Assembly (NCBI GenBank): GCA_001784175.1
Contig: MFPR01000005.1
Span: 1 to 32,192 of the forward strand
Direction: 5' to 3'
Source of the DNA: Candidatus Lindowbacteria bacterium RIFCSPLOWO2_12_FULL_62_27
GTDB taxonomy: Bacteria > Lindowbacteria > 2-12-FULL-62-27
Length of the DNA: 32,192 bases
Position numbers and translations under genes: made by a program. Shown here in pieces: positions 2,303-27,402 of this stretch; within the stretch, counting starts at the first letter, position 1, and every line of letters begins with the position of its first letter. The notes below the pieces were generated by a model. It was not told where the DNA came from. It did not search any database and saw nothing but the letters and a program-made list of their open reading frames with translations.

Positions 2303-2334
2303 AAAAAAACGGGGCGGCCGCAACGTGCCGCCCC
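2303..2334 (-). terminator. Rho-independent terminator of the porin-B-A-D-c554 operon
   Basis: Minus strand GGGGCGGC-acgttgcg-GCCGCCCC-G-TTTTTTT. A second long hairpin (2348-2388) precedes it. Confidence 0.85.
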
Positions 2335-2438
2335 ACCATCCAATCAGCCTCTTTGCCAACGGAAGATCGGACCTTACCGGCAAAGGGGGTTCCTGATCCT
2401 TCACAAATGGCAAACCGGCCAAATGAAAACAGATAGTC

Positions 2439-3068
2439 CTACTTCTTCGCGGGCGCCTCCTTGGGCCTGGGATGCGCGATTTTTTTCCACGCCTCCTTGA
2501 AATTGAATTCCGCGCGGTCGCCCATGCGCGGCGCGGTCTCGTTATGGCACTGCCGGCACATCGCCTCGGTCGGGATGATCAGGCCGTTGGCGACGGATTT
2601 GGCGCGGTCCTTCATGATGGGGACTTTGGCGTAATCGGCGCCCGCGCCGTGGCATCGTTCGCACTGCACGCCGTCCTCGATTTTGAATTTTTCGCCCAGA
2701 AGCGCCGCGTCGGCGCCGAACCCCGCCGTGTGGCACTTGAGACACTCCGGCGCCTTTTGCGGGTCGCCCTTCACGCCGACCTTGGCCGCCAGGTCCTTCG
2801 CCTCCTTTGACGCCAACATCTCGTAGGCTTTCGCGTGTTTGCTCTCCTGCCAGTGTTTGAGTTGGTTGCCCTTGGCGTCGCTCTTGTGGCACATGCCGCA
2901 TTTGGCGACGCCCACAAACCCGTGTTTTTTTGCCGCCGCCGGCTCGGGCTTGGCTTTGGCCGGGCCGCCCGCGGACGCCGCGTCCTCCGACCAGATCATC
3001 ACCGCAACGCACAGAAGGGAGAACACGATGGCGAGAATGACTCCCGTCACGATGAACGTCCGCTCCAT
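2439..3068 (-). CDS. tetraheme cytochrome c554-family protein with N-terminal signal/anchor
   Basis: Four CxxCH (CGMCH, CLKCH, CERCH, CRQCH), FVG-x2-KC and W-x2-SKHAKAY motifs, hydrophobic N-terminus. Alternative start 3107. Confidence 0.85.
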   Translation of the reverse strand: MERTFIVTGVILAIVFSLLCVAVMIWSEDAASAGGPAKAKPEPAAAKKHGFVGVAKCGMCHKSDAKGNQLKHWQESKHAKAYEMLASKEAKDLAAKVGVKGDPQKAPECLKCHTAGFGADAALLGEKFKIEDGVQCERCHGAGADYAKVPIMKDRAKSVANGLIIPTEAMCRQCHNETAPRMGDRAEFNFKEAWKKIAHPRPKEAPAKK

Positions 3069-3087
3069 TAATGTGACTTCCCTCTCG

Positions 3088-3687
3088 TTAAATTCCACCG
3101 CGTTCATCTCCTTCCTCCTTCTCCAAAAAATCCGCGGCCAGATCGGTTACCTGCCGGTAGAACGGCAGGCGCGCGGCGCCGGCCACTTTTCCGGCGAATT
3201 TCGGGAACCACGCGCCCAGATGCTCCGACAAAAATTTCCGCTCCGCCTTGAGGCACTCCTCCGCCATCGCCACGTCTTCCTCCCGGCGCGCCCGCGCCTC
3301 GCGCTCGACGAGCCTCTGCATCAATTCAAATTCGACCGACACGTGGTCCGGGATGAACGTCTCATCGCCGATGGAAAGTCCCATGGCCTCGATGAATCGC
3401 CGGACGGCGGAGGTCTGCGGACCCCACAACAGCGCCGGCTGGCCGGTCGCCGCCGCATGAACCGACTCGTACGGCGAAATATGCGGCCCCGGGCCGAGAA
3501 AAAGGCGGGTGAACTCGACCGCCAATTCCTCCATTCCCTGCCCGCCCGACGGGATGTCCAGCTCCATATCGGCGGCCTTGAGCGCGTCCAAAATCTCGGC
3601 GGTCGGCGCCTCACGATAGAGGCGGGAGAACAGGCCGTAGAGAGCCGCGCGGGACAGCGCTGTCTCTTCCTCGACCTCGGGCGTCAT
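3088..3687 (-). CDS. TorD/DmsD-family molybdoenzyme chaperone
   Basis: RAALYGLFSRLY, EFTRLF, PYESVH, PDHVSVEFELM, FLSEHLGAWFPKF. Start moved to ATG 3687, just after the A subunit stop. Confidence 0.9.
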   Translation of the reverse strand: MTPEVEEETALSRAALYGLFSRLYREAPTAEILDALKAADMELDIPSGGQGMEELAVEFTRLFLGPGPHISPYESVHAAATGQPALLWGPQTSAVRRFIEAMGLSIGDETFIPDHVSVEFELMQRLVEREARARREEDVAMAEECLKAERKFLSEHLGAWFPKFAGKVAGAARLPFYRQVTDLAADFLEKEEGDERGGI

Positions 3688-3701
3688 TGTCGTTTCCGTA
3701 T

Positions 3702-6140
3702 TCAGGCCTTCTCCACCGTGACGACCGTGTCGTTCCAGCGCATCTGGCCGCTGATGTGGTCGGCCTTGTTGGCGATCAGCCAATTGGGATGCTTGCCGAA
3801 CGTGTCCCATGTCGGCTTCTCGCCCTCAACCTCCGGGAAAACCTCCTTGCCCGACGCGTAGCGGCCGTACTCCCAGTGTCCGACGCTCATGGAGATGGCC
3901 ACGACCTGCGGGTGGATGCCTTCTGTCACGCGCGCGGTGGTGACGATTTCGCCGATGGGAGACTTGAGACGCACTTTGTCGCCGTTGGCGATTCCGCGCG
4001 CCGCCGCCGTCTTCGGATTGATCCACATGGGATTGTCGTGATAAATCTCCGTAAGCCACTTGCAGTTCGCCGTGCGGGACTGCGTGTGGAACGCGACCTT
4101 GAAGGTCGTCAGGTGCAGTTCGCCCTCCTTCATCGCCTCATGCTCCGCGATGGGTTCGTAGGACGGCATCGGCTCGTGGCCCTTCATCTTGAGCAGGGTC
4201 GAGTAAATTTCGAACTTGCCGGACTTGTTGACAGCGTCCGGCGCGAATCCGACGTAGACCTTGTCGCCGATCTTCTGCCCGACGTACTTCTTGAATGCAT
4301 CCTTCGTCGTGGTGTAATCCTCGCCTGCCTTGCCCTTCCACCAGACGCCGGTCTTCTCGTCTAATATGGCGTCTTTGAGATCCTCCGGCTTGACCTCCTT
4401 CTCGTGCTTGCGGTACTTGCCCTTGGCGTTCTTGTCGTACCACGCGCCATACTTTTTCATGTACTCAAATCCACCGACGGCCTTGATCTCGGGCGTGTTC
4501 TCGCAGCCGTCCTTGATGAACTCCTCTGACGAATTGAAGGGGAGGTCGATGCCGAGCCGTTTGGCGATGTCGATGCAGACATCCTGGAACTGGCGCGATT
4601 CGCCCAAGGGCTTCACGATGGGCTGGCGGATATACCATTCGGAGATCTGATCGTGCGACGCCATGTCGTCGAGGGTCCAGCGTTCGAGATAGGTGACGTC
4701 GGGCAGGATGAGGTCCGCCAGCGCGGCCGATTCGCTCATAAAGGGCGTGACGGCGACACTAAACGGCAGGAGGGTCTCGTCTTTCATGACGTCGATGTTC
4801 TCCTGGCATTCGCCGTTCACGTAGACCGGATTGTGGCAGTAAAACATGTAGACGTCCGGCCGGCCTTCCTTGCCTTCCTTGATCACCTTGAAGATCTGGT
4901 GGCTGACGTGGTGCGTCGGATAGGCGCAGTGCTCGATGCCATGGTCCAATGCCAGCGCCTTGGGTTTGGCGTCCGGCTTTTTGTAGGAGTTGACCCACTT
5001 GGGTCCGACCGCCCGGGCGCGCCCGCCGGGAACGTCGATGTTGCCGCAGAGCGCCTCCAGCATGAGCGACGCGCGTTCGCCGTCCGCGCCTTCCTGGTGG
5101 GCGACCAATCCGCGGTAGGTGACGCACACGGATGGCTTGGTCGTGGCGAATTCCTTGGCCAGCCGCGTGATGGTGGACGCCGGCACCCCGCTGACCTTCT
5201 CGGCCCACTTCGGCGTGTACTTCTTCAGATGCTCCTTGAGCTGTTCCACTGTCGCGGTCGTCCATGTCTCGATGAAGGCGGTGTCCTGAAGGCCTTCGTC
5301 GAGGATGACCTTGCACATGGCGAGGATGACGGCCTTGTCCGTGCCGGGTTTGATGGGAATCCACTCGCGGGATTTGGCGGCCGTGTTGGAGAGGCGCACG
5401 TCGAAGGTGACGAGCGGGACGCCGCTGCCGAGCGCGGCGGCAAGCCGCTGGGCGAACGGAACGTGATTGGTATGGGCTTCGAGCGGATTGCATCCGAAAT
5501 TGAGGATGAACTTCGAGCGGGACACGTCGAAGACGTCATAGTGTTTTCCCCACGTCAATTCCTGGGCCGTCCATTTGCCGCCTTCGCAGATGGACGTGTG
5601 ATTTCCGATGGTTTTCGTGCCGTAGGCGGGAAGGAAAAAGCCTGTGACGATGGTGGAATCGGAGCCTTTCATGCGCCCGTAATGGAACATGAACTTTTCG
5701 GGCGTTCCGTCGTCGCGGAGTTTTTTGAGGCGCGCCGTCAACTCATCGAGCGCATCGTCCCACGTGATGCGCTTCCACTTGCCTTCGCCTCGCGCGCCGA
5801 CCCGCCGCATCGGGTAGAGGATGCGGTCGGGATCGTAGACCTGATTGACTCCGGCCTGGCCGCGGGCGCAGATGACGCCGCTGGTGCGCAGGAGATTCGG
5901 GTTGCCTTCGATCTTGACCAGCCGGCCGTCCTCGACGTAGCCGATGATGCCGTCGCGGACGACGCACTGCCAGCAGGAGGATGGGACGGCCGTCCGGGCG
6001 ACGCCCTTGAGGGATACGTCGGCCCAGCCGGATTTGAGTTCGACCGCGCCGGCGAGGATCGGTTTTCGAACGCCGATCGTCGCGAGCGTGGCCGCGGCCG
6101 CGCCGAGTTTGAAGAATGACCTTCGCGTCATATTAACCAC
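3702..6140 (-). CDS. Tat-exported DMSO-reductase-family molybdoenzyme catalytic subunit (Arr/Psr/Anr-related, substrate unknown)
   Basis: Tat motif TRRSFFK, FS0 motif CWQC-x3-D-x27-C, DRILYPMRRVGARGEGKW, putative Mo-ligand loop NHTSICE, ADLILPDVTYLER, HTQSRT, 812 aa. Confidence 0.9.
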   Translation of the reverse strand: MVNMTRRSFFKLGAAAATLATIGVRKPILAGAVELKSGWADVSLKGVARTAVPSSCWQCVVRDGIIGYVEDGRLVKIEGNPNLLRTSGVICARGQAGVNQVYDPDRILYPMRRVGARGEGKWKRITWDDALDELTARLKKLRDDGTPEKFMFHYGRMKGSDSTIVTGFFLPAYGTKTIGNHTSICEGGKWTAQELTWGKHYDVFDVSRSKFILNFGCNPLEAHTNHVPFAQRLAAALGSGVPLVTFDVRLSNTAAKSREWIPIKPGTDKAVILAMCKVILDEGLQDTAFIETWTTATVEQLKEHLKKYTPKWAEKVSGVPASTITRLAKEFATTKPSVCVTYRGLVAHQEGADGERASLMLEALCGNIDVPGGRARAVGPKWVNSYKKPDAKPKALALDHGIEHCAYPTHHVSHQIFKVIKEGKEGRPDVYMFYCHNPVYVNGECQENIDVMKDETLLPFSVAVTPFMSESAALADLILPDVTYLERWTLDDMASHDQISEWYIRQPIVKPLGESRQFQDVCIDIAKRLGIDLPFNSSEEFIKDGCENTPEIKAVGGFEYMKKYGAWYDKNAKGKYRKHEKEVKPEDLKDAILDEKTGVWWKGKAGEDYTTTKDAFKKYVGQKIGDKVYVGFAPDAVNKSGKFEIYSTLLKMKGHEPMPSYEPIAEHEAMKEGELHLTTFKVAFHTQSRTANCKWLTEIYHDNPMWINPKTAAARGIANGDKVRLKSPIGEIVTTARVTEGIHPQVVAISMSVGHWEYGRYASGKEVFPEVEGEKPTWDTFGKHPNWLIANKADHISGQMRWNDTVVTVEKA

Positions 6141-6969
6141 GAGCGTTCACCCCCTCGCCGAGCACTTCGGGTTTATCGAGCGCGATGTAGTACGTGTTCG
6201 GTTTTGTTTTTGCTTCCGGTTTCCAGACGCCGGTTTTGGCGCCTTTCAGGCGTTTTGAAATTTCGCTGCCGGGGTCGTTCATGTCGCCGAAGACGATGGC
6301 GCGGCCGACGCAGGTGTTGGCGCAGGACGGCTCGATGCCCTGGTCCAGCCGGTGGACGCAGTAGTCGCACTTGCCGATGCCGTTCTGATCCGGATCGCCG
6401 CCGGCTTTCATATAAGGATGAACGTATCGCGCGCCGTAGGGACAGGCCTCGACGCACTGCTGACAGCCGATACAGCGTTCGTTGTTGACGAGGACAAGGC
6501 CGTCGGGGCGCTTGTAGGTCGCCTTCTGCACATATTCGACGGTCGTGCCGTCGGGCGCGTTGTAGGTGACGGTGATGGGATCGACGGGGCAAGCCTCCAC
6601 GCAGGGCGGCGCGTCGCAGTGATTGCAGAGGATGGGCGCGATGGCGCGGCCTGTTTTCGGATAAGAGCCGTATTCGAGATAATTGACTTTCCGGCGGAAC
6701 ACACCCAAGGGTACATTGTTTTCGCTCTTGCATGCAACCTCGCAGGCCTTGCAGCCGGTACAGCGCGTGAGGTCGATGAGCATGCCGTAGTGAGGCGTTT
6801 TTGTTTCAGCGCCCAGAGCTTCGAGCGGCCGGCCAGTCACCAGAGTTGCGGCGCCGGCGGCGGCCGCAGCCGCGCCAATACCGAGGGTTTTTAGAAAATC
6901 CCGGCGCTCGGCAACCGCTACGGCGCCCTCCTTGCCTTCCCCGGAGGAATCCCTTATTTCCGAATCCAT
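6133..6969 (-). CDS. 4Fe-4S dicluster electron-transfer subunit with its own Tat signal
   Basis: ERRDFLK plus hydrophobic stretch; four Cys groups CTGCKACEVAC, CNHCDAPPCVEACP, CIGCQQCVEACP, CDYC..PSCANTC; overlaps the A subunit start. Confidence 0.92.
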   Translation of the reverse strand: MDSEIRDSSGEGKEGAVAVAERRDFLKTLGIGAAAAAAGAATLVTGRPLEALGAETKTPHYGMLIDLTRCTGCKACEVACKSENNVPLGVFRRKVNYLEYGSYPKTGRAIAPILCNHCDAPPCVEACPVDPITVTYNAPDGTTVEYVQKATYKRPDGLVLVNNERCIGCQQCVEACPYGARYVHPYMKAGGDPDQNGIGKCDYCVHRLDQGIEPSCANTCVGRAIVFGDMNDPGSEISKRLKGAKTGVWKPEAKTKPNTYYIALDKPEVLGEGVNARG

Positions 6970-7008
6970 GCCCCTTCACCTGCCTTTTTCATGTTGTGTA
7001 AATCGCCG

Positions 7009-7044
7009 GGAGAGGAGGGGGCCACCCTCGGCCCTCCTCCCTCC
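7009..7044. other. intergenic stem-loop between porin and B subunit
   Basis: GGAGAGGAGGGGGCC-accctc-GGCCCTCCTCCCTCC imperfect hairpin without a U-tract; possible mRNA stabiliser or partial terminator. Confidence 0.4.
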
Positions 7045-7094
7045 TTCGGCTATAAAAACACTTCGATGCCAACCGCGCGAAAAATGGCCCTGCT

Positions 7095-8228
7095 TCAGAA
7101 TTTCACAGCCACCAGAAGCGACTGAATGTCGTCGTCCGGGTCGGTCAACCCGCTGCCCGACGTGAAGGTGCGCTTGTTGTTCGTGAAGGCGTACTTGAAC
7201 GTCACCCACTCGCCCAGCTGATATGCGATGCCCGCCTCCACGCGCTTCATCTCGTTGACGTTAACTCCCATGCCTCCCGTCCCGCCCGACGGGGCGAGGA
7301 AGTTGGAGCCTTTCAGGTCGATCTTGCTCCACTGCAGGCCGAGATAGACCTTCTCCGTCACATCGTACCGGCCCTCGAGCATCCATACCTTGCCCTCCCG
7401 CTTGCCCTTGTTGCCGTCGGCCGCCTCCGTGTCATCATCGAACTCGCCGTAATAGCCCTTGACCAATCCCTGCTCAAATTTGTAGTCTGCATGAAGCAAC
7501 CAGAGTTCCCGCTCCGCGTTTTTGCCGGCGCCGGTCAGCGTAACGCCGCCAACCGCCGCGGACGACGTGCCGTTCACACCGAGATCGCCGGAATTGTGCC
7601 AACTGCCCCACACCGACAGCGCGTCGGTGAGCTTGCTTCCCAGCCGGAACGTGATCGACTTCTCGCTGTCAACGTCGGGATCGTCGCCAGTCGAGGCGGC
7701 GGCGGCGCTGACGGCGCTCGCCGAGTTGTGCGCGCTGCCCTCCGTGAAGGCCAGGTCGTAGGTGATGCCGTAGTCGGAGACATCGGCCTTGCCGAAAAAC
7801 ATGATGCCTCGATCGTTTCCGTTGAACAGGCCGACCGAGTTGTTCACCAGGTTCTGCTCAATCGAGTTGTCAATGAACGTTTCAACGCCCAGTGGAATTT
7901 TGAATTGACCGACCCGGGCCTTGACGTCCGCCAGACCCACAAACCCAAGCGGAACGTCCAGGAAGGCATAATCCACGCTGCCGAATTCCCCCTCGTTGAT
8001 GTTCATCCGGAACGTCGCCTTGAGGTCGGCCGGCAACTCAAATGTGGTGACCAGCTTGACGTCCGGCACCCGGAAGGTTGCGGTGTCATACACGCCGCCC
8101 TTGTCCGATTGAAAATACCCCATCGCCGAACGGCCGCTCATCGTGATGAACTTGGCGTCGGCCGAAACGGCGAACGCCAGCGACATGGCGATCAACAGCA
8201 TCCAGATTACTGCATTGCGATTAAACAT
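7095..8228 (-). CDS. outer-membrane porin (OprO/OprP-like anion porin)
   Basis: Signal peptide (VSADA-K), DYAFLD, VGQFKIPLGVE, DRGIMFFG, C-terminal VAVKF. First gene after the sigma54-type promoter. Confidence 0.75.
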   Translation of the reverse strand: MFNRNAVIWMLLIAMSLAFAVSADAKFITMSGRSAMGYFQSDKGGVYDTATFRVPDVKLVTTFELPADLKATFRMNINEGEFGSVDYAFLDVPLGFVGLADVKARVGQFKIPLGVETFIDNSIEQNLVNNSVGLFNGNDRGIMFFGKADVSDYGITYDLAFTEGSAHNSASAVSAAAASTGDDPDVDSEKSITFRLGSKLTDALSVWGSWHNSGDLGVNGTSSAAVGGVTLTGAGKNAERELWLLHADYKFEQGLVKGYYGEFDDDTEAADGNKGKREGKVWMLEGRYDVTEKVYLGLQWSKIDLKGSNFLAPSGGTGGMGVNVNEMKRVEAGIAYQLGEWVTFKYAFTNNKRTFTSGSGLTDPDDDIQSLLVAVKF

Positions 8229-8920: not shown

Positions 8921-9361
8921 TCATGGTTCTCGACGCGAACGCCGGCTCAACCACCACGCTGCGGCGGCTACCGATAGGAGCGTGATCACGGCGACCAGGG
9001 GTCTGGCCAAGGGCAGGAGCGCAGCGCCGAACAGGTTGAGGTAAACCACGAGTATCGGGGACCCACAGCACCCCAGCAGGTAGCAACCGGCAACAGCCAG
9101 AACCCCGGAGAAGGTGATTCCGCCGATGGCCAGACTGCGCGATCCGCACAACTTATCTTCCCGATACCGTCGCAGCGCCCACACCGCAAAGGCCAGGGAG
9201 AGGGCGTAGGAGAACCCGAGGAAGTAGGATTGGGTTGCGGCGTAGCTCCTCCCGCCTTCCGGGAACAACCCGAGCCAAAGATAGTGGACACCCCAAACAG
9301 CCCAGAAGACCGCAATCGGCAAGACGGACCGCAGCACGAAATGTTTCACCCTCACAAACAT
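8921..9361 (-). CDS. small ~4-TM membrane protein with C-x4-CC motif
   Basis: Hydrophobic segments; AGCYLLGCCGSP; start overlaps the upstream stop (TGATG; GTG at 9364 is an alternative). Confidence 0.7.
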   Translation of the reverse strand: MFVRVKHFVLRSVLPIAVFWAVWGVHYLWLGLFPEGGRSYAATQSYFLGFSYALSLAFAVWALRRYREDKLCGSRSLAIGGITFSGVLAVAGCYLLGCCGSPILVVYLNLFGAALLPLARPLVAVITLLSVAAAAWWLSRRSRREP

Positions 9362-10521
9362 CACAGCAATCGCATGAGGTCGTGACTCGGGTTGGCGGGG
9401 CGCGCTTCCGGCGCACCGTCCTGGACGTATCCGGCTCCGGTCAGAAGGGCTGCCTCGGCGCGGGCCAACTCTCGTCCGAGATAGGCCGCGTGGTCAAGCC
9501 GGGAAACCAGTCCCTTTTCGATGGCCGGTATGTAGAGCTCCGCGGCAGCGCGGCCTTCTATCACCATGTTGAGCACGCCGTTGTTCCCAAAGTGTTCAAG
9601 CGAAAGTGCGCCGCGGACGCGGTCCACGTAGAGGACGAAGTACCCAGCGGGATCACCGGTCATACGTTCCGGCAGATATCCCGTGATGGGGTGGAGTTCC
9701 TGGATAGAGGGAAACGGGTCGGCCGGCCCCGGATCGCGCGCCGCGCAAGCGCGAACACGGCGCAGGATCGCGTTCAAGTCGTCCACGCCGATCAGGTCGG
9801 CAATCTCCACGCTCCGCCGCAAGTGTTCGACCGCCTCGCCGCCAACGTTCTTGAGGATCGGCCGCTTGCCGTTGGCCCCTATGATGCGTCCGCGCTCGTC
9901 GATCCCGGAACGGCCCAGCGAGAGCAGCGACTGGCCCGGCAGGTGTCCGATGGCCTGCCGGGAATCCGCGCCGCAGAGGACGAGAAAGCGGATATTCGGG
10001 TTGGCCAGGACATTCGTGATGATTCGCTCGATGCCCAGATTCTCCGTGTGGAGCGTGCCGACAATTGAGATTGCGTCTTCTCCGCTCCGGACAATCGGTT
10101 CAACGAGATCCCCGGCGTTGAGCGTGCAGACCGCGACGGATGCTCGATACCGGAGGACGGTGTAATCACCCGGGAACGGTGGCCAGCCCGCATGTGCTTC
10201 GGCTGCTTCCGCGGGGCACGGATCAATCTCCAGCTTTGTGCCCGATCCGTTCAGGGCGTTGACCGCCAGCGCGGGGTGGCAGACCTTGCATCCCAAGCAG
10301 TCGTACGTGCGATCGGTGAGTACAGCTTTCCCCGCCTCGATGGCCGATGAGAGCCGATCCGGCCGGGCAGTCGCCGGTATCGCATCCCCAATCGCCTTCA
10401 AGGTGTCGTGGAAGCATCCGCATGGCCGGCACTTGCTGGCGGCGGTGGCATGGTCGATCTGTGCGGCCGCCTCCTCCACGGATGAGGTCGATGCCGCATG
10501 AATGGAATTTTCGCCTTCCAC
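9361..10521 (-). CDS. Cys-rich domain + MtrA-like corrinoid-binding domain + DUF4346 fusion
   Basis: N-terminal CRPCGC and YDCLGCKVC; MtrA signatures GWP..GDY, VAVCTL, HTENLGIERIITNVLANPNIRFLVLCG, GHLPGQSL, GRIIGANG; C-terminal DPAGYF..LDHAAYLGRELARAE. GTG start overlaps the arsR stop (TAGTG) after GAGGAG. Confidence 0.85.
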   Translation of the reverse strand: MEGENSIHAASTSSVEEAAAQIDHATAASKCRPCGCFHDTLKAIGDAIPATARPDRLSSAIEAGKAVLTDRTYDCLGCKVCHPALAVNALNGSGTKLEIDPCPAEAAEAHAGWPPFPGDYTVLRYRASVAVCTLNAGDLVEPIVRSGEDAISIVGTLHTENLGIERIITNVLANPNIRFLVLCGADSRQAIGHLPGQSLLSLGRSGIDERGRIIGANGKRPILKNVGGEAVEHLRRSVEIADLIGVDDLNAILRRVRACAARDPGPADPFPSIQELHPITGYLPERMTGDPAGYFVLYVDRVRGALSLEHFGNNGVLNMVIEGRAAAELYIPAIEKGLVSRLDHAAYLGRELARAEAALLTGAGYVQDGAPEARPANPSHDLMRLL

Positions 10522-10925
10522 TACCGCCGCGCTCCTCGCAGGTCCGACATCAAGGTTCGCGCGCCGCTCGGCCGGTCCTCTGTCAAGCAGAGGCCTTGAT
10601 CGAGAAGACTCACCACGCACGGGTCCACGATGCGGTAGTGCATCTGGGTTCCGTTGCGCCGCGAGGCCACGATCCCCTTGTCCACGAGCCTCCGAAGTTG
10701 GTTCGAGACGGCCTGCGTCTTCACGCCGACAGCCTCCGCAAGGTCCCCCACGCACAGGTCCGGCTCGCGGACCAGGGCATGGAGCATCCGCAGACGGGTG
10801 CCGTTGGCGAGCACCTTAAACGCCGCCTCCATACTTGCGGACTGTTCCGAGCCGATGAGCGGGCGCTTCCCAATCTTCGGCTTCGGCGGGCAACAGGCGA
10901 CCGAAGTTCGCCCGGATCCGGCCAT
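10521..10925 (-). CDS. ArsR/SmtB-family repressor with N-terminal CC
   Basis: ACCPP, FKVLANGTRLRML, DLCVGDLA, QAVSNQLRRL, RRNGTQMHYRI, DPC..GLC; SD GGAAGG before ATG 10925. Confidence 0.9.
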   Translation of the reverse strand: MAGSGRTSVACCPPKPKIGKRPLIGSEQSASMEAAFKVLANGTRLRMLHALVREPDLCVGDLAEAVGVKTQAVSNQLRRLVDKGIVASRRNGTQMHYRIVDPCVVSLLDQGLCLTEDRPSGARTLMSDLRGARR

Positions 10926-10938
10926 GGCTGCCTTCCGT

Positions 10939-10981
10939 TTGGACACTACGACATCATATGGTGTAATAGTGTCCAAGTCAA
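10939..10981 (-). promoter_or_regulatory. sigma70 promoter inside a 38-bp palindromic operator
   Basis: TTGACT (10981-10976), 17 nt, TATGAT (10958-10953). Palindrome TTGGACACTA-cg-ACATCATATGGTGT-aa-TAGTGTCCAA at 10939-10976. Confidence 0.85.
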
Positions 10982-10993
10982 GTATGGAGGCAT

Positions 10994-12313
10994 TCAGAAA
11001 CTGTATCGCATCCTGAAGTAGAGGTTGTCGTTCCCGTCGAGCTGGCCGAACTCGGTATGAGCGCGGCGGCCTGTGAATACGTCGGCGCCGACGACCAGTG
11101 TCCACTCGTCCGACATCTTCCATGAGAGGCACGGCCTGAGATGGGCGTCGCGGTCGGTGGGACTGTAAAAGGCGAACAGGGAGGCCTCGACGGTTTGAAA
11201 CCGGAAGAGCCGGGTCAGCCGCAGGGTCAAGACACGCCGCCGCTCGGCGCGGGGCGGATTGCCGGGCGCGGCGCTTCGTTGAAACGCGCCGAAGTTGCGC
11301 ATCCGCTCGACGTAATATTGAATCCCCACGCGCGCGTCATTCGGAAAATCGCGTTCGTATCCCGCCAGATATTTCATCGCCGAATTCTCGACGAGGCGGT
11401 CCGTGCCGCGGCGGTCGTCGATCGAATCGTACCAGCCGGCCTCAAACCAGCCGATACCGCCGAGCCGCGCCACAGGCCCGCGAATGCTTGCGCCCCATAC
11501 CGCCAGACGCGGATAAAAGAGTTCCCGGCCGCCTGAACTCACAAACCCACGCGGCTGTTTGAAAAACCCGCGGAAGGCGTACAGGGCGCACTCGGCGCTT
11601 CCATACGAGCGCGCGAGGCGCGCCGCCGCTTCCGTGTGGTCCAGGCGCGCAGCAGGCTCGATCAACACGCGCCGCGCGTCGCTCCCCGCGATCCGGCCCA
11701 ACGTGGGATCGAAGAAACTGAGGCGCTCGCCGCGCAGGGGGGCGTCGGGCGCGAAGAACGGAACGAACACAACGTCCAGGGACGCGCCCGGCCCGAACGC
11801 CGAAAATCTGGCGGCGTCGGAAGGCGCTTTGAGATATTCGTCGTCCCGGCCGATGAAGAACGAGACGAAATCTTTCGGAAACAGATCGTTGACGAACAAC
11901 AGGTCCCCCGTTCCCCACGTGAGAATCTGCCGGCCGATCTTGACGTCAAGCCACTCCGCCGGGCTGAACAGAACATGCGCTTCGCGAATCCGCATCTGGA
12001 CGCTCGATGCATTCCGGTCGCCGGCGAGATCGGACTTGGAGAACAGTTCCGCGCGCCATTTGTTTTCCCGGGCGGGCCGCCAGAGGGTTTTCAGTTGAAG
12101 GCGGGATTCGAGGAAGTTGAAGCCGGCGTGCCGGGTCTTTCCCTCGCCGCCGATCTTCGGCCCGAAGGCGGCTTCGGCGAATCCGTGGATTTCGCGGGCG
12201 TCCACGCGCGCCGCGCCCGCCGAGAACGCGGCGATGCAGGCGGCGACGAGAAACGCCCCGTCAGCGAATCCAGGACGCCGGCGGACGGCGGAGACTCCGT
12301 TCCTGAAAAACAT
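10994..12313 (-). CDS. outer-membrane beta-barrel (DUF1302-like) partner of MMPL/LolA-like proteins
   Basis: IREAHVLF, IGRQILTWGTGD, FGQLDGNDNLYFRMRYSF C-terminus, signal-like region ending ARVDA. Start uncertain. Confidence 0.75.
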   Translation of the reverse strand: MFFRNGVSAVRRRPGFADGAFLVAACIAAFSAGAARVDAREIHGFAEAAFGPKIGGEGKTRHAGFNFLESRLQLKTLWRPARENKWRAELFSKSDLAGDRNASSVQMRIREAHVLFSPAEWLDVKIGRQILTWGTGDLLFVNDLFPKDFVSFFIGRDDEYLKAPSDAARFSAFGPGASLDVVFVPFFAPDAPLRGERLSFFDPTLGRIAGSDARRVLIEPAARLDHTEAAARLARSYGSAECALYAFRGFFKQPRGFVSSGGRELFYPRLAVWGASIRGPVARLGGIGWFEAGWYDSIDDRRGTDRLVENSAMKYLAGYERDFPNDARVGIQYYVERMRNFGAFQRSAAPGNPPRAERRRVLTLRLTRLFRFQTVEASLFAFYSPTDRDAHLRPCLSWKMSDEWTLVVGADVFTGRRAHTEFGQLDGNDNLYFRMRYSF

Positions 12314-18864: not shown

Positions 18865-19626
18865 TTACCGCCCTACGCCGCCCAGCGAATGGCAGCTCAT
18901 GCAACGCCCCTCATCCGGCAGAGATTTCATGTATGCCACAAGCGACTCGCGCTCCTCCACCAGCATGTCAATTTTGGGCATGACCGTCCCGGGGCTGACC
19001 TCGCGCGGCTCCTTGAAGTGTTCCTCCAGCCATTTGGCGTCGCGCCGGAGGCCCACGTCGCTCAGGTTGGGGCCAACCGTGCCGCCTTCTCCGAAAACGG
19101 AGTGGCAGTTGCCGCAGCCGAATGTGGCGAACAGGAGCTGTCCCTCGGTGATTTTCGGATCGGTCCGGATGGCCCGGTTGATCATCGGCGTTTGGGCGCC
19201 GTACCAGGTCAGAACAACCACGGCCGACAGGGTCGCCATCCCCAGCGCCGTCCAGCGGGGCCGATCCCACGGATGGCGCGAGATCGTTCGATCGAGCCGT
19301 GGGACGAGAAGCAGAGCCATGACGCCGACGAGAGGCACGCCCACCGCCGCCAGCGCCTCCAATTTTCCCGGAAAGAGTTTGAGCATCTGAAACAGGAAGA
19401 GAAAATACCATTCGGGCCGGGGATTGTAGGTGGTGGAGGCCGGATCGGCCATTTCATCGAGTTCCGCGCCAAGCGTCAACGCGAGAACGAGGACGATGAC
19501 CGTCAGCGCCGCCATTGCCACCAGGTCCTTGAAGACCGCATACGGGTAGAAGGATTTCCCGCGTTCTTTGGCCTGCCGGTACTCATCAAGAATTTTCTCG
19601 CGGTCCCGGTCCATTCCGGCGCTCAT
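18865..19626 (-). CDS. qcrC: Rieske/cytochrome b complex subunit IV fused to cytochrome c (QcrC-like)
   Basis: FYPYAVFKD, PRPEWYFLFLFQ (Qo PEWY), CGNCH..GPNL..MP heme domain, extra terminal CMSCH. Confidence 0.88.
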   Translation of the reverse strand: MSAGMDRDREKILDEYRQAKERGKSFYPYAVFKDLVAMAALTVIVLVLALTLGAELDEMADPASTTYNPRPEWYFLFLFQMLKLFPGKLEALAAVGVPLVGVMALLLVPRLDRTISRHPWDRPRWTALGMATLSAVVVLTWYGAQTPMINRAIRTDPKITEGQLLFATFGCGNCHSVFGEGGTVGPNLSDVGLRRDAKWLEEHFKEPREVSPGTVMPKIDMLVEERESLVAYMKSLPDEGRCMSCHSLGGVGR

Positions 19627-20297
19627 GGCTTTCTCTCCGGCGGCGCGGATATGCCATGCCAGACGACCAGAAAGAGGTGGACGACGACGAAAATGAGAAG
19701 AAGGGCGGGAAGAAGCAAAACGTGAAATGAGTAGAACCGGGTGAGCGTTCGGGCGCCCAGCACCTCGCCGCCCTTCAACACGCTTGCCGTCGCCGGCCCG
19801 ATGAGCGGAACCTGTTCGGCCATTTCAGTGCCGACTTGCGTTGCCCAGTAGGCTTTCTGATCCCAGGGCAGAAGATAACCGGTAAAGCCGAACCCGAGGA
19901 CGATGACGAAGAGAAAGACGCCGGTCGCCCACGTCATTTCGCGCGGGTACTTGTACGCGCCCATGAAAAAAACGCGAAGAAGGTGCAGGGTGACCATGAT
20001 CACCATGAGGCTCGCCGCCCATTTGTGTACGGCGCGCAGGAGACCTCCCATGGGCGTCTGGTCGATGAACTGGATGGACGCGTAGGCGTGGTCCGGCGTG
20101 GGAGCGTAATTCATCGCCAGAAGGATTCCGGTGAAGACCTGCACGAGGAACAAAAAGAGCGTGGCGCTGCCGAAGGTATACAGCCACGAGACCCGCCCGG
20201 AAATCTCCGGGATTTTTCGATCGAGGAGCGCGGCTTTGACCCGGCGCCAACCGCAGCGCTCATCGAGTTCCTGAAGCAACGATTCGTAACGGCTCAT
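19623..20297 (-). CDS. qcrB: cytochrome b6-type N-terminal subunit (QcrB-like)
   Basis: TGILLAMNY, RAVHKW..LHLLRVF, GYLLPWDQKAYW, RFYSFH..VHLFLV with four heme-b His; true start ATG 20297. Confidence 0.92.
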   Translation of the reverse strand: MSRYESLLQELDERCGWRRVKAALLDRKIPEISGRVSWLYTFGSATLFLFLVQVFTGILLAMNYAPTPDHAYASIQFIDQTPMGGLLRAVHKWAASLMVIMVTLHLLRVFFMGAYKYPREMTWATGVFLFVIVLGFGFTGYLLPWDQKAYWATQVGTEMAEQVPLIGPATASVLKGGEVLGARTLTRFYSFHVLLLPALLLIFVVVHLFLVVWHGISAPPERKP

Positions 20298-20298
20298 G

Positions 20299-20811
20299 CT
20301 ACACCCCCGCCCTTTTCTGAGCCACCGGCATGACATGCAGGCGGCCGTCCACCAGACGCGTCGGATACCGGTCCAATGGCCTCGGCGGCGGGCCTTCCAC
20401 CACCGCGCCGGTTTTGTCAAAGACGCCCATGTGACACGGGCACAAAAATTTCTGCCGCTGGGCGTCCCAGCGGAACGGACAGCCGAGGTGCGGGCAGTGC
20501 GGGTCGAATGCCTCGAAGGCCGATTCGGCCGTCCGGACAACCCAAACCGTCGCCCGGGATTGCGCGACGATCCACCCGTCCCGTTTTCGTTTCGAGATTT
20601 CGACTCTCTGGGGAACGCCGATTTTGAAGCCGTCCACGTCTCCGACGTCCGACCAGTCCGCCTCCCGTTTTCGCAAGAGGGGCGCAGAAAAAACCGTTCC
20701 ACCCACGCCCGCGAAAACGATGGCGATGAATCCGCCCATATAGTTGATGGCGCGGACAAACCAAGACCGGCGGGTCAATTCCGCCTCTTTGGGACAGGGT
20801 TGATCGCTCAT
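20299..20811 (-). CDS. qcrA: Rieske iron-sulfur subunit (QcrA-like)
   Basis: TRRSWF Tat anchor, CPHLGC and CPCHMGVF boxes, GPPPRPL; start 20811 forms an ATGA overlap. Confidence 0.92.
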   Translation of the reverse strand: MSDQPCPKEAELTRRSWFVRAINYMGGFIAIVFAGVGGTVFSAPLLRKREADWSDVGDVDGFKIGVPQRVEISKRKRDGWIVAQSRATVWVVRTAESAFEAFDPHCPHLGCPFRWDAQRQKFLCPCHMGVFDKTGAVVEGPPPRPLDRYPTRLVDGRLHVMPVAQKRAGV

Positions 20812-21248
20812 GGGTTGCCTCCCTTGGCGAGGGGCGATCCGTAGAGCACTTTGATCTTGCTGTCCGGGCCGTGGCATTTCACGCAGACGAGTTCCTGAAG
20901 GTTCGGTTTGAAGAGATGGGGATTTCTCAGCATGACAGCCTCCGTGAATATCGGTTCGCCCTCCGACCGCCGGGGCCGAACGATGATCCTGGACATGGTC
21001 TTTTTAAACGAGTTGGGGTGCAGAACCGTTCCCTCGTTGAAGTAGCCTTCCCTCTGATCCCCATCGCCGCCGGCCATGCGAAAACCGGCGTGGCAGGTGA
21101 TGCACGAATGGTTTTCGTGATTGTAGGCCGGATTGGTCGACCGGATGTGTCGCTCGTGGAGCGGCGCCGGCGCCTTTTCTCCGCAGGCCGAGCAGAACAC
21201 CGCCACGGCGAATACGGCGCAAATCCCGGCAGGTTTTGAGAAACGCAT
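20808..21248 (-). CDS. diheme cytochrome c lipoprotein
   Basis: Lipobox-like FCSA-C, CITCH and CVKCH, extra His residues, SD GGGAGG. Confidence 0.75.
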   Translation of the reverse strand: MRFSKPAGICAVFAVAVFCSACGEKAPAPLHERHIRSTNPAYNHENHSCITCHAGFRMAGGDGDQREGYFNEGTVLHPNSFKKTMSRIIVRPRRSEGEPIFTEAVMLRNPHLFKPNLQELVCVKCHGPDSKIKVLYGSPLAKGGNP

Positions 21249-21261
21249 TCCGGATTCCTCC

Positions 21262-21939
21262 CTATCCGGCGGCGGCGCGCGCGCCGGCCAGCCGAGTCTG
21301 TTCTTCGGACATGAAATCCTCCGTCATCAGCGCCACTCCCGCATAAAAACGGGACTGGCTTTCTTTCCGGATGTATCGGCAAAGATCGAATATCCATCGG
21401 AGCAGATGTTCCTTCAGAAAATCGTTTTGAATGACCCGGCATTTCTCCACCTCGGCCGCAAGACCCCGATCCATGGCGTCAACTTCTATACCGCACAGAA
21501 ATTGCATGAACTCCATCTCCACCCCGACGTGATCCGGGTGCTCGTCGCAATTTTTTCCGAGAACCGCGCCGGCGTAGTCGTAGAAGCGTTTGACGCCGAT
21601 CGTCACCTTGCCGCCCAGACGCATCTGGGGGTCGGTGAAAACCGATTCGTGGGGGCGTATGGGCGGGCCTTTGCGGCCGAGGGGAAGAACAAAGAGGCGT
21701 GTGTATTCCGCCGTGAGATCGCGCTCCAGGCCGGGGTCAGCGGCCGATTCGTCCAGAAACGCCGCCAGTTCCGCCCGCGCGGGGGAATCGTCCGAAAGCG
21801 ACAATTCGTCCAGCAAGCGCCGGGACCGGATCAGTTCAACGATACCGGCCGGAGGCGGCTGGGAATAGACGGACGAGAGAAACACATACAGATCGGCCCG
21901 GCGGCGGGATTCGAGAGATTCCGTGGACAACTCAGCCAT
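21262..21939 (-). CDS. TorD/DmsD-family chaperone
   Basis: RADLYVFLSSVY, EYTRLF, PHESVF, HPDHVGVEMEFM, FLKEHLLRWI. Confidence 0.9.
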   Translation of the reverse strand: MAELSTESLESRRRADLYVFLSSVYSQPPPAGIVELIRSRRLLDELSLSDDSPARAELAAFLDESAADPGLERDLTAEYTRLFVLPLGRKGPPIRPHESVFTDPQMRLGGKVTIGVKRFYDYAGAVLGKNCDEHPDHVGVEMEFMQFLCGIEVDAMDRGLAAEVEKCRVIQNDFLKEHLLRWIFDLCRYIRKESQSRFYAGVALMTEDFMSEEQTRLAGARAAAG

Positions 21940-23233
21940 TGCCGGACAACACCCATCGGCGCGCCATGGCGCGGCGCTTGCGTTCCTGATTCATGCAGAG
22001 CGGACAGTAAGGATCATCCGCCTGTTTGGAAACAAACGACGCGCGGCATGCACGGCAAATCTGACGGCGGCTTTCAATGAGTTTGCGCTCTCCCGCAAAC
22101 AGTATCGCGGGGTCGGCCGTCCGCGAAATCGTTATCGCCTTCGGCAGACACGCCGCGGCACAAACGCCGCAGGCGGTGCATGATTTCGGATCAAAATACA
22201 GCTCGAAGACATTACCCGATTCTACGCGCCGGATCGCATCGGTCGGACACAAACTCTCGCAGACGTTGCATCCCATGCAGGATTGCGACACGGAAATCCC
22301 GGCGAAATTTGCCGGATTTGCCGCGGGATCGGCCGTGACCGTATTCAGAGAGATCGTGTCGGCGGGCGTTTGGGTGGTCGCCCCGTCACTGTCTCGGAGC
22401 GATTCGATAAGTTCCAGAAGATGTTGCCGGCGGGGTGACGGGATTTTCCTCAATATTCTTTCACGGAACTTCTCCCCCACGCTCTTTTCTTCCCTTGTCG
22501 CATCCGGCTCGGGCAGAATCGCGGCGGCCTGGCCGACCGCCGATTTCAAGAACGTCCGGCGGGACGACAGGGGCGCCGGCAGGCCGGCCGGCTCAGGACA
22601 AAACGGCGCGGCGACGACGGACAGGCGGTCCGGCTCAATTCCGGCAAACTTCATGACCCGCCGCGCAATCTCCACCGTTCTTTCCATGCCGGCGCCGGCG
22701 CTTCGCATCGGACAGGTTTCACACGACGGCTTCAGAATCTCCACGCGTGCCGCTCCGTGACGGAATGATTCGAGAATGACGGGAACTGTGAGGCGGCCCA
22801 GACACACGAGCACGGCATCCGCCCCCGCGGAGTGACTGCAGGAGATGTTGAGAATCCGCGGAGCCGGCGGACGGGTATCCAGCAGGCGGCGGAATTTGAG
22901 GCCCCATTGCCTGTCGGTGGCGCAAACGGCGTCGAACCCTCCGTTCAAATCGGGAGACGCCGCCCCCGACTTGAGCGAACGGCATCCCTGCCGTTCGGGG
23001 TCGGGGACGGCTGACGTCCATGTCGCCGATCCCCTCATTTCAATCGCGCCGTTCGGGCAGGCCGGCACGCAAGCTCCGCAGGCGATACAAGCGTCGCTGA
23101 CGCGCGCGCCCTCCGCGCCGATCTGGACGGCGTCGACCGGGCAGGCCCGCGCGCACAGATCGCAGTCGGATTTGGAACAGAGGTACCGGCTGCAAAGCCC
23201 CGATTCGACGGCGACCGGGATTTGCGTCAGCAT
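21932..23233 (-). CDS. polyferredoxin (multiple 4Fe-4S), molybdoenzyme-associated
   Basis: CDLCARACP, CIACGACVPACP, CMGCNVCESLCP, CTACGVCAAACL, terminal CRAC..CPLC. Confidence 0.85.
   Translation of the reverse strand: MLTQIPVAVESGLCSRYLCSKSDCDLCARACPVDAVQIGAEGARVSDACIACGACVPACPNGAIEMRGSATWTSAVPDPERQGCRSLKSGAASPDLNGGFDAVCATDRQWGLKFRRLLDTRPPAPRILNISCSHSAGADAVLVCLGRLTVPVILESFRHGAARVEILKPSCETCPMRSAGAGMERTVEIARRVMKFAGIEPDRLSVVAAPFCPEPAGLPAPLSSRRTFLKSAVGQAAAILPEPDATREEKSVGEKFRERILRKIPSPRRQHLLELIESLRDSDGATTQTPADTISLNTVTADPAANPANFAGISVSQSCMGCNVCESLCPTDAIRRVESGNVFELYFDPKSCTACGVCAAACLPKAITISRTADPAILFAGERKLIESRRQICRACRASFVSKQADDPYCPLCMNQERKRRAMARRWVLSGNG
22933..23027. repeat. second in-frame palindromic element, in the polyferredoxin gene
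   Basis: Perfect 9-4-9 hairpin 22976-22997 (GGGA loop on minus) inside outer stem 22959-22970/23000-23011; GCGACATGGACGTC at 23026-23013; shares ACGGAGGGT-n-CG with the MMPL element. Confidence 0.6.
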
Positions 23234-23237
23234 TTCA

Positions 23238-23858
23238 TCACATCGAATACATCGTGCTGGGCTTTGTGCCGCTCTCGATCGAGAGCTTCACTTCCTTCGC
23301 CCGCTTCTGCCGAATCAGCGCGGTGAGGTCGTTGACCTCGCCGAAAAACCGCGTGCGGGCAATGCAGGCCGTCACGCAGGCCGGCAGAAGCCCCTTATCA
23401 ACCCGGTGGACGCAGAGCGTGCATTTTTCCATCGTCTGCGTGTCGGCGTTGTACTGCGGCGCGCCGTAGGGACAGGCCCAGGCGCAGTACCGGCATCCGA
23501 TACATTTGTCGCCGTTGATGAGGACAATGCCGTCCTCCTCGCGTTTGGTGATCGCTCCGACCGGGCAGGCGGCCACGCACGCGGGCTTGCCGCAGTGCAT
23601 GCAGGGCATCGGCACGAAATAGACACGCATGTCCTTCGCGGGCTTCGAAGGGTCGGTGAATTCTCCCTCTTCCACGGTGATCACGCGGTTGTAATCGACG
23701 CCGACCTGCGTGTTGTTTTCAGCCTTGCAGGCCATCGAGCAGGAGTTGCACCCGACGCAGTATTCGAGATCGATCCACAGGGCGAACTGTTTCCTGCCTC
23801 GCTTCTTAAAACTGGCGTCCAGAACTTCCTGCGAAATAAACGCGCCGCGCTCAGCCAT
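23238..23858 (-). CDS. 4Fe-4S dicluster B subunit (DmsB/NrfC-like), no Tat signal
   Basis: CVGCNSCSMAC, CMHCGKPACVAACP, CIGCRYCAWACP, CTLC..PACVTAC. Confidence 0.92.
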   Translation of the reverse strand: MAERGAFISQEVLDASFKKRGRKQFALWIDLEYCVGCNSCSMACKAENNTQVGVDYNRVITVEEGEFTDPSKPAKDMRVYFVPMPCMHCGKPACVAACPVGAITKREEDGIVLINGDKCIGCRYCAWACPYGAPQYNADTQTMEKCTLCVHRVDKGLLPACVTACIARTRFFGEVNDLTALIRQKRAKEVKLSIESGTKPSTMYSM

Positions 23859-23873
23859 GTCTCATCACCCCCC

Positions 23874-26810: not shown

Positions 26811-26835
26811 TTGCAGGCCTCCTCCATATTTATAT

Positions 26836-26854
26836 TTGGAACCTGGTGTTCCAA
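26836..26854. promoter_or_regulatory. inverted repeat between arsR and the A subunit
   Basis: TTGGAAC-ctggt-GTTCCAA in an AT-rich gap just upstream of the SD; operator or RNA hairpin. Confidence 0.4.
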
Positions 26855-26877
26855 TCCGCAATCTATTATCCAAAAAC

Positions 26878-27240
26878 TCACGATCTCGTTCCACCCACAA
26901 TTTGCGCCTGCTTTCGGATTCGCTCAGAGAGGATGTCCCGAATCAGGTCGAACGCCTCCAGCATGCGCGGCGCGGCCAGGCGGTAGTAAATGCGGTTCGC
27001 ATCCTTTCGGGAGAGCAGCACGCCGCGCCGTTTCATCATGAGCAGATGGGGCGATACGGTTCCAAACCCCACGCCAAGTTTTCTGGCGATCTCTTTCACG
27101 CACTCCTCCCCGTCCCGCAGCGCTCCCAGAATGCGCAGGCGCACCGGATGCGAAAAGATTTTGCACATGTCCGCATGAAGTTCGCACAGCATTTCGTCGG
27201 ACGATCGAGAAACCCCACGAACGGCTTTCCTCCTGCCCAC
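26878..27240 (-). CDS. ArsR/SmtB-family transcriptional regulator
   Basis: CELHADMCKIFSHPVRLRIL, GEECVKEIA, TVSPHL, RKDANRIYYRL; GTG 27240 after a purine-rich SD-like stretch. Confidence 0.88.
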   Translation of the reverse strand: MGRRKAVRGVSRSSDEMLCELHADMCKIFSHPVRLRILGALRDGEECVKEIARKLGVGFGTVSPHLLMMKRRGVLLSRKDANRIYYRLAAPRMLEAFDLIRDILSERIRKQAQIVGGTRS

Positions 27241-27266
27241 CTCACGCCCCCCTTCGCTTGCGAGTA

Positions 27267-27292
27267 TTCTACAGAACTCAAGAACTGTAGAA
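27267..27292. promoter_or_regulatory. 8-10-8 inverted repeat over the predicted +1, putative ArsR operator
   Basis: TTCTACAG-aactcaagaa-CTGTAGAA, directly downstream of the -12 element. Confidence 0.55.
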
Positions 27293-27298
27293 CGACAT

Positions 27299-27315
27299 TG
27301 CAAAGGGTATTCCGA
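27299..27315 (-). promoter_or_regulatory. sigma54-type -24/-12 promoter
   Basis: TCGGAATACCCTTTGCA = GG-N10-GC; 16/17 identical to 8350-8366. Confidence 0.7.
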
Positions 27316-27402
27316 CAAAGACCAAGGGGAAGAAAAAGGCGGCAACTACTTTGAGGGCATTGAGTTGGTTATGGGGAAGCCATGATGTCCTGAAGGGGGG
27401 TA

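Follow-up and report, generated by a model that had tools for sequence, protein, structure and literature searches.

A five-gene porin–molybdoenzyme operon from a Lindowbacteria genome: placement of its catalytic subunit and a possible role in arsenate-type respiration

The operon and its host genome

The window analysed here is a whole contig (C5, 32 192 nt) of the 4.39 Mb, 94% complete genome of Candidatus Lindowbacteria bacterium RIFCSPLOWO2_12_FULL_62_27, for which a genome search returned three relatives from its own family and otherwise matches at the level of 'same domain' only. Its reverse strand carries a five-gene operon, which is real and intact: a porin, an Fe–S subunit (B), a catalytic subunit (A), a chaperone (D) and a tetrahaem cytochrome c554, followed by a terminator-like hairpin (Table 1). 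All five ORFs stand in the order given by the initial annotation. From B onward the genes are closely spaced or overlapping; the ATG of A lies one base past the stop codon of B, and D and the start of c554 share 20 nt. Upstream of the porin, neither a sigma-70 nor a sigma-54 consensus was found, and terminator-like sites are no commoner than in shuffled sequence (9 found versus 8.1). The stem-loop between the porin and B may act as an mRNA stabiliser. Neither an X-type binding protein nor a sensor or ars gene lies beside the operon, and no NrfD/PsrC gene occurs within it. The earlier statement that the system has no membrane anchor therefore holds for an integral C subunit and does not extend to c554, because this cytochrome carries a 22-residue hydrophobic helix.

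Table 1. Features of the operon and their positions in the window.
Feature	Position	Strand	Basis
Porin, phosphate-selective O/P-like, 377 aa, signal peptide, C-terminal Phe	7095..8228	-	PF07396 E 7e-4, under cut-off
Intergenic stem-loop porin/B, without T run	6970..7094	-	RNAfold -49.6 kcal/mol, no shuffle control
B: four-cluster Fe–S electron-transfer subunit	6133..6969	-	Fer4_11 and TtrB/DsrO-like matches under cut-off; Cys motifs
A: Mo/W-bisPGD catalytic subunit, GRMK clade, Tat motif, Cys182 metal ligand	3702..6131	-	PF00384/01568/04879
FS0 motif C53-x2-C56-x3-D60-x27-C88, Asp for third Cys	5868..5975	-	Aligned with third Cys of 6cz7 and 2vpw
Active-site segment HYGRMKG, NHTSICEGGK, Y198	5538..5684	-	Conservation in 120 homologues
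D: TorD/DmsD-type maturation chaperone, 199 aa	3088..3687	-	PF02613 E 3e-25
Tetrahaem c554-like cytochrome, four CxxCH	2439..3107	-	PF13435 E 2e-19
Intrinsic-terminator-like hairpin at operon end	2308..2337	-	11-bp stem and T run; consensus match only

The view that the operon has its own porin is supported: against Porin_O_P-like clusters, the Atlas feature matches reach 0.98 and the TM scores 0.71–0.83. Profiles of three porin subfamilies from related loci miss this protein, which belongs to the same O/P-like superfamily. Subunit B has four Fe–S Cys motifs with 16 Cys residues, and the Tat motif RRDFL at residue 22. The initial annotation assigned the Tat signal to B and missed the one that A itself carries, TRRSFF. 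In related loci, a strict Tat pattern occurs in 48/72 A, 26/66 B and 0/60 D proteins, and a loose pattern, applied with no control, in 66/73 A and 62/68 B proteins.

The cytochrome has a long acidic N-terminal region, the 22-residue helix (KD 2.93) and an A-x-A site; apart from the signal peptide of the porin, this helix is the sole stretch above 1.5 KD. The closest homologues share this N-terminal arrangement of acidic region, helix (KD about 3) and P-x-x-A-x-A, in contrast to 108 more distant ones, whose signal peptides are short and mostly basic. The A-x-A site favours a cleaved signal and the unusual N-terminal region favours an anchor, and the helix may be either. Since no c554 orthologue was found in 79 loci related to A and two paralogues occur elsewhere in the host, c554 is a local, host-specific recruit. 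A role as a conserved family partner is thereby rejected; as an electron donor, the function first proposed for it, c554 is plausible in this host only. One paralogue, 62% identical, lies on contig C4 ahead of cytochrome b/Rieske-like genes. Directly after a c554 paralogue, the genome also encodes a 1059-aa cytochrome with 42 CxxCH motifs (G000:C30:134905-138084).

The remainder of the window holds several other genes. Downstream of the operon, a CBS-domain gene and a second porin (265-2059) form a pair that is paralogous to one at G000:C8:1883-3780, the two porins being 74% identical; an NrfD/NapC-like gene (29342-32017) has a C8 match too, at the same score. An MtrA-like corrinoid protein fused to DUF4346 (9361-11132, reverse strand; NF002128, 459 of 568 bits) sits behind an ArsR regulator and upstream of a CMD gene, and CMD genes are also present in 5/78 of the family loci described below. 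A second exported molybdoenzyme operon (18865-27345, reverse strand) comprises an ArsR-type regulator, a 1008-aa catalytic subunit of Ttr lineage (TtrA model, 352 of 1750 bits), B, an FlpD-domain polyferredoxin, TorD, a dihaem cytochrome c, cytochrome b6 and a PetD–cytochrome c fusion; no Rieske or NrfD gene was seen in it.

Active site and placement of the catalytic subunit

Subunit A (809 aa) belongs to the Cys-ligand Psr/Arr/Ttr group of the DMSO reductase (Mo/W-bisPGD) family, having the molybdopterin domains, the N-terminal Fe–S motif, the Cys ligand and a four-cluster B partner. No NCBIfam model reaches its cut-off (PhsA, NF012032, 382 of 694 bits; ArrA, NF041714, 224 of 1600; TtrA, 143 of 1750). 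The AF2 model, with a pLDDT of 92, gives TM scores of 0.77 to ArrA (6cz7) and 0.75 to PsrA (2vpw) at 24–25% identity. The two active-site segments that had been read from the sequence were located at A150–156 (HYGRMKG, window 5684-5664) and A177–186 (NHTSICEGGK, 5603-5574). Among 120 homologues, H150, Y151, G152, R153, K155, H178, T179, C182, E183 and K186 are kept in every one, M154 in 118 and Y198 in 119.

Residues R153, H178, C182 and Y198 of A, which are near-invariant in the homologues, align with R165, H189, C193 and Y210 of ArrA. These ArrA residues reportedly contact arsenate. The Tyr at ArrA position 166 is replaced by Met, and the active site of A adds an invariant Lys relative to ArrA; K186 corresponds to ArrA K198 in the pairwise alignment and is off by one in the profile alignment. 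ArrA positions 165, 189, 193, 198 and 210 and the RGRY motif (163–166) are those given in the available text of PMC13685797. At the FS0 cluster, the third ligand position is Asp in 102 of the 120 homologues, Cys in 17 and Ser in one. A 3Cys/1Asp FS0 is known in nitrite oxidoreductase, where the Asp is at the second position (PMC8387239, as far as its accessible text goes). The split between Asp and Cys offers a natural switch at this cluster.

At least 119 relatives of A share 57–68% identity with it; at E 1e-20, a cut-off loose enough to let in other families, the count is 2710 proteins. Of 481 matching stretches in GTDB, 79 loci were examined, and the carriers include Nitrospirota, Omnitrophota, Planctomycetota, Marinimicrobia, Gemmatimonadota, Nitrospinota, Desulfobacterota, Alphaproteobacteria and others. 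The trees were computed under LG+G4, with no mixture model, one PhsA row and no SrrA, SoeA or AnrA rows; their Arr rows are RGRY proteins of 1080–1155 bits, themselves under the NF041714 cut-off. In the 47-row tree, 12 GRMK rows form one branch (100/100). At 100/99 this branch joins the GRNR clade typified by Azoarcus KH32C, together with a Thermomicrobium roseum enzyme that has a large B and no Tat signal and with some relatives that lack the ligand. Arr/Arx, Ttr and a second unnamed family branch apart from this group, and PhsA is the next branch after it (80/97). A common clade of GRMK with Arr/Arx is rejected (AU p 1.25e-34), as is one with PhsA (AU p 1e-5, with a single, long PhsA row). 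The initial annotation had called the enzyme neither ArrA nor ArxA and left its clade unassigned, and both statements stand: A lacks RGRY (YGRM/V in 120/120) and GRGWG, and the GRMK clade lies outside Arr/Arx, Ttr and PhsA. Placement inside the PhsA clade, which would have spoken against the annotation, was not seen.

Known systems share some of these features. ArrAB of Shewanella ANA-3 resembles the operon enzyme in its fold, its Cys ligand and its R165, H189 and Y210 equivalents; it often has no C subunit, and XSR sensors of the same types accompany GRMK relatives. It differs in sequence (24% identity), in having RGRY for GRMK, in its A–B rather than B–A gene order and in lacking the FS0 Asp, and a common clade is rejected; on NF041714, A scores 224 of 1600 bits. 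ArxAB has XSR control, the Cys ligand and a TorD gene in common with the family, yet is only about 30% identical, and its sensor loop is missing from the family sensors; an ArxA identity was rejected, the GRGWG motif and the arxB2ABCD order both being absent. PsrA/PhsA/SrrA have a similar fold and give the best NCBIfam score, but they show an A–B–C order with a membrane C subunit and other active-site residues. A PsrA/PhsA identity was rejected on gene order (B–A or (B)–C–A in 76/78 loci), topology test and model score. The gene order and the Tat signal on B resemble Ttr; a TtrA/SrdA identity was rejected, as A branches apart and scores far below the TtrA cut-off.

The GRMK clade matches the uncharacterised Unk group of Duval et al. 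(2008; PMC2500031, branches UnkA_AzoEb and UnkA_DecAr in the part available), a match of descriptions rather than of the sequences YP_160703.1 and YP_285805.1. Both have a B–(C)–A order and fall outside Arr, Psr/Phs and Ttr, and GRMK, GRNR (41% identity) and the T. roseum enzyme together resemble Duval's three Unk types. Duval's anchor-less cases differ in having no Tat signal and a 60-kDa B, whereas both subunits of the window operon carry Tat signals and its B is normal. Among titles and abstract openings, no printed description of the GRMK clade was found, and it is unnamed in the accessible portions of PMC7331816, PMC10100899, PMC6620896, PMC12949373, PMC13685797 and PMC8032467; PMC10100899, to the same extent, has unnamed Cys-ligand branches near these lineages. 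At ten loci (L097, L099-L104, L107, L166, L167), the Cys segment that ligates Mo is missing from close relatives of the GRMK/GRNR enzymes, whose NrfD and multihaem gene neighbours recall Qrc scaffolds. At L164 (G048:C31), an ArxA operon and a GRNR-clade B–A pair lie in tandem on one contig.

Gene neighbourhoods and sensors of the relatives

Synteny was counted over 78 loci, one (L078) having been dropped as its A was not picked. The order is B–A in 59 and (B)–C–A in 17, with D within two genes downstream in 62. Of the 59 B–A loci, 29 have an 11-haem cytochrome ahead of B and 11 a porin. A phosphate-type porin directly before B (11/59) is found in 0/20 Psr/Phs control loci, all from one class, and 14/46 long loci have neither an NrfD nor a multihaem gene; thus, the anchor-free, porin-bearing layout recurs in the family, whose porins fall in at least three subfamilies. 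Genes for acr3 or arsC occur in 8/78 family loci versus 0/20 controls.

An AioX/ArxX/ArrX-family binding protein, X, is encoded in 24/78 family loci (22/48 of those with at least 6 kb upstream) and in 0/20 controls. L020 shows the order X-S-R-B-A-D, as do L001, L018 and L019 with an additional porin between; near relatives of the operon (L002, L061, L009, L021) have no X in the DNA examined. For one X, the best PDB match is the arsenate-binding ArrX (189 bits), with AioX at 159. We typed 22 full-length X proteins; the sensor tree left out those shorter than 230 aa (L033, L046, L055) and duplicate loci. Eighteen show the MxSP/FIC pattern of Chrysiogenes ArrX with its Cys present, and the remaining four, without the Cys, group (SH-aLRT 100) with the X of 13/13 arrABD loci. 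The PVFL loop, which we infer to be the Val56-Phe57 loop of PMC5908839, is found in none of the 22, versus both ArxX rows (2). According to the available text of that paper, ArrX binds arsenate and phosphate while AioX and ArxX bind arsenite, each sensor binds the substrate of its own enzyme, none of the three binds antimonite (antimonate was untried there), and the evolution of the sensor cluster was separate from that of the enzymes. As 13/22 X proteins come from one Desulfobacterota subclade, the sensor evidence amounts to about eight independent lineages. The two PF12974 proteins of the Lindowbacteria host lack the Cys. The X proteins preceding arrABD operons in the class sample (13 loci of L201-L219) and those of L010, L013, L020 and L068 form an RYNP subfamily without the Cys, which is remote from Chrysiogenes ArrX and apparently a second kind of arsenate-reductase sensor.

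Possible substrate and respiratory role

The operon itself has no sensor or ars neighbour, so its substrate must be borrowed from its relatives; these often lie beside arsenate-type sensor genes, and the operon may therefore encode an overlooked arsenate-respiring enzyme. In our judgement, the enzyme belongs to a large uncharacterised clade that would work like Arr and is not an Arr member. At a probability of roughly 45%, judged from sequence, it would act in the periplasm as a respiratory reductase, fed by c-type haems, whose substrate is a pentavalent oxyanion of arsenic type, namely arsenate or possibly thioarsenate; the metalloid-oxyanion part of the original proposal gains support. In such a pathway, D would mature A, and AB, with Tat motifs on both subunits, would be exported as a soluble periplasmic dimer, while the phosphate-type porin would admit the anion through the outer membrane. 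Electrons would leave the menaquinol pool via a quinol dehydrogenase or cytochrome b complex whose genes lie elsewhere, reach c554 and then move through the B clusters and FS0 to Mo, which would remove an oxo group from As(V). In this host, c554 would take the slot filled in relatives by the 11-haem cytochrome or an NrfD subunit.

The X sensors, of types found with arsenate reductases, point to As(V), and the near-invariant equivalents of the four ArrA residues and the acr3/arsC and porin neighbours argue in the same direction. So do the host's futalosine menaquinone genes, as menaquinone goes with Arr rather than Arx (PMC13685797, in its accessible part), and an arsR gene followed by a 506-aa ArsC–Acr3 fusion ORF (G000:C4:48295-50167), on a contig other than that of the operon. 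Against As(V) stand the bare surroundings of the operon, the Cys-less PF12974 proteins, the lost Tyr166 and the position of the clade, which is not sister to Arr/Arx and has a Soe/Sre-like protein as its nearest named neighbour. The limited number of sensor lineages, the single class of the controls and the separate evolution of the sensors described in PMC5908839 weigh on the same side.

That Soe/Sre-like neighbour, the T. roseum protein, together with PhsA on the next branch and as top NCBIfam match and PsrA as top PDB sequence match, would suit an oxidoreductase for sulfur or selenium oxyanions (thiosulfate, tetrathionate, sulfite, selenite), with the arsenic sensors confined to some sub-lineages. 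Many carriers are sediment Desulfobacterota, and the window copy is unflanked by arsenic genes. We consider this unlikely, as the joint clade with the one long PhsA row is rejected, Psr/Phs lack the Arg/His/Tyr set and none of their 20 loci has X, acr3, arsC or a porin. An As(III)/Sb(III) oxidase of Arx type, with c554 carrying its electrons towards the respiration of oxygen or nitrate, appears improbable. The host encodes oxidase- and nitrate-reductase-like genes, which leaves room for the oxidation direction. Furthermore, Arr/Arx enzymes are bidirectional in vitro (PMC13685797) and the potential of FS0 changes with an Asp ligand (PMC8387239), both according to the accessible text; the c554 paralogue precedes cytochrome b/Rieske-like genes, and a PVFL-type sensor accompanies the sister GRNR enzyme of Azoarcus KH32C. 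The absence of the ArxX loop from all GRMK sensors typed, the missing GRGWG motif and the menaquinone genes oppose it.

Membership of the AnrA antimonate-reductase clade is similarly improbable. AnrA is reported to reduce Sb(V) and to be induced by Sb(III), and the cluster of Geobacter sp. SVR is reportedly named anrXSRBAD, an order with which the B–A–D arrangement and XSR sensors of GRMK relatives agree. The X-S-R-B-A-D order of L020 keeps the antimonate idea alive, since the other XSR-linked families examined (Arr and the HGHGK family) use A–B; the window operon itself has B–A–D and no XSR, and gene order alone is no test of membership. AnrA exists as a DMSO-reductase-family enzyme in the accessible parts of PMC13284237, PMC12183865 and PMC11521347, and the portions of the citing literature available gave no usable motif, accession or gene order. 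Only 1/401 sampled genomes of a class with eukaryote-type citrate synthase, inferred to be Desulfuromonadia, which would include Geobacter, has a GRMK enzyme, in the cytochrome layout; the sample shows no absence. The published anrA primers give no placement above chance: 'Desul-anrA' has six exact metagenome matches, none in a molybdoenzyme, its best paired DNA match is 27/40 versus a mean of 24.4 (sd 1.0, 150 genes) with later loci no better, and its peptide placements are ambiguous for two families. The sensors are of types found with arsenate reductases, and a distribution across many phyla of marine sediment and groundwater would better suit arsenic. A second unnamed XSR-linked family, HGHGK (L159-L161, L169), was also considered as a candidate for AnrA. 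It has A–B–dihaem–D order, some of its members carry Asp at the position of the first FS0 Cys, and none was found in the 401-genome sample.

Returning to the arsenate-type reading, the GRMK clade may represent one more family of reductases that respire arsenate (or thioarsenate), separate in evolution from the others and spread over many phyla of marine sediment and groundwater, with a 3Cys/1Asp FS0, exchangeable electron-input modules (NrfD, 11-haem cytochrome, here c554) and its own anion porin. Its members are mostly labelled thiosulfate reductase or generic molybdoenzyme and would probably be missed by arrA surveys; the arrA-CVF1 primer reads H-S-A-I-C-A where the family has H-T-S/A-I-C-E. 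Some arsenate respirers do lack arrA (Duval et al., 2008; PMC2500031, in the part available). The present analysis adds sensors typed as arsenate-reductase type with a negative control, topology tests and the host-specific c554. If AnrA falls in the GRMK clade, the gene pool for antimonate respiration is far wider than known. Surveys use arrA to count arsenate respiration, a process that mobilises arsenic in aquifers and sediments; a second widespread reductase family, if real, would change inventories of arsenate respiration.
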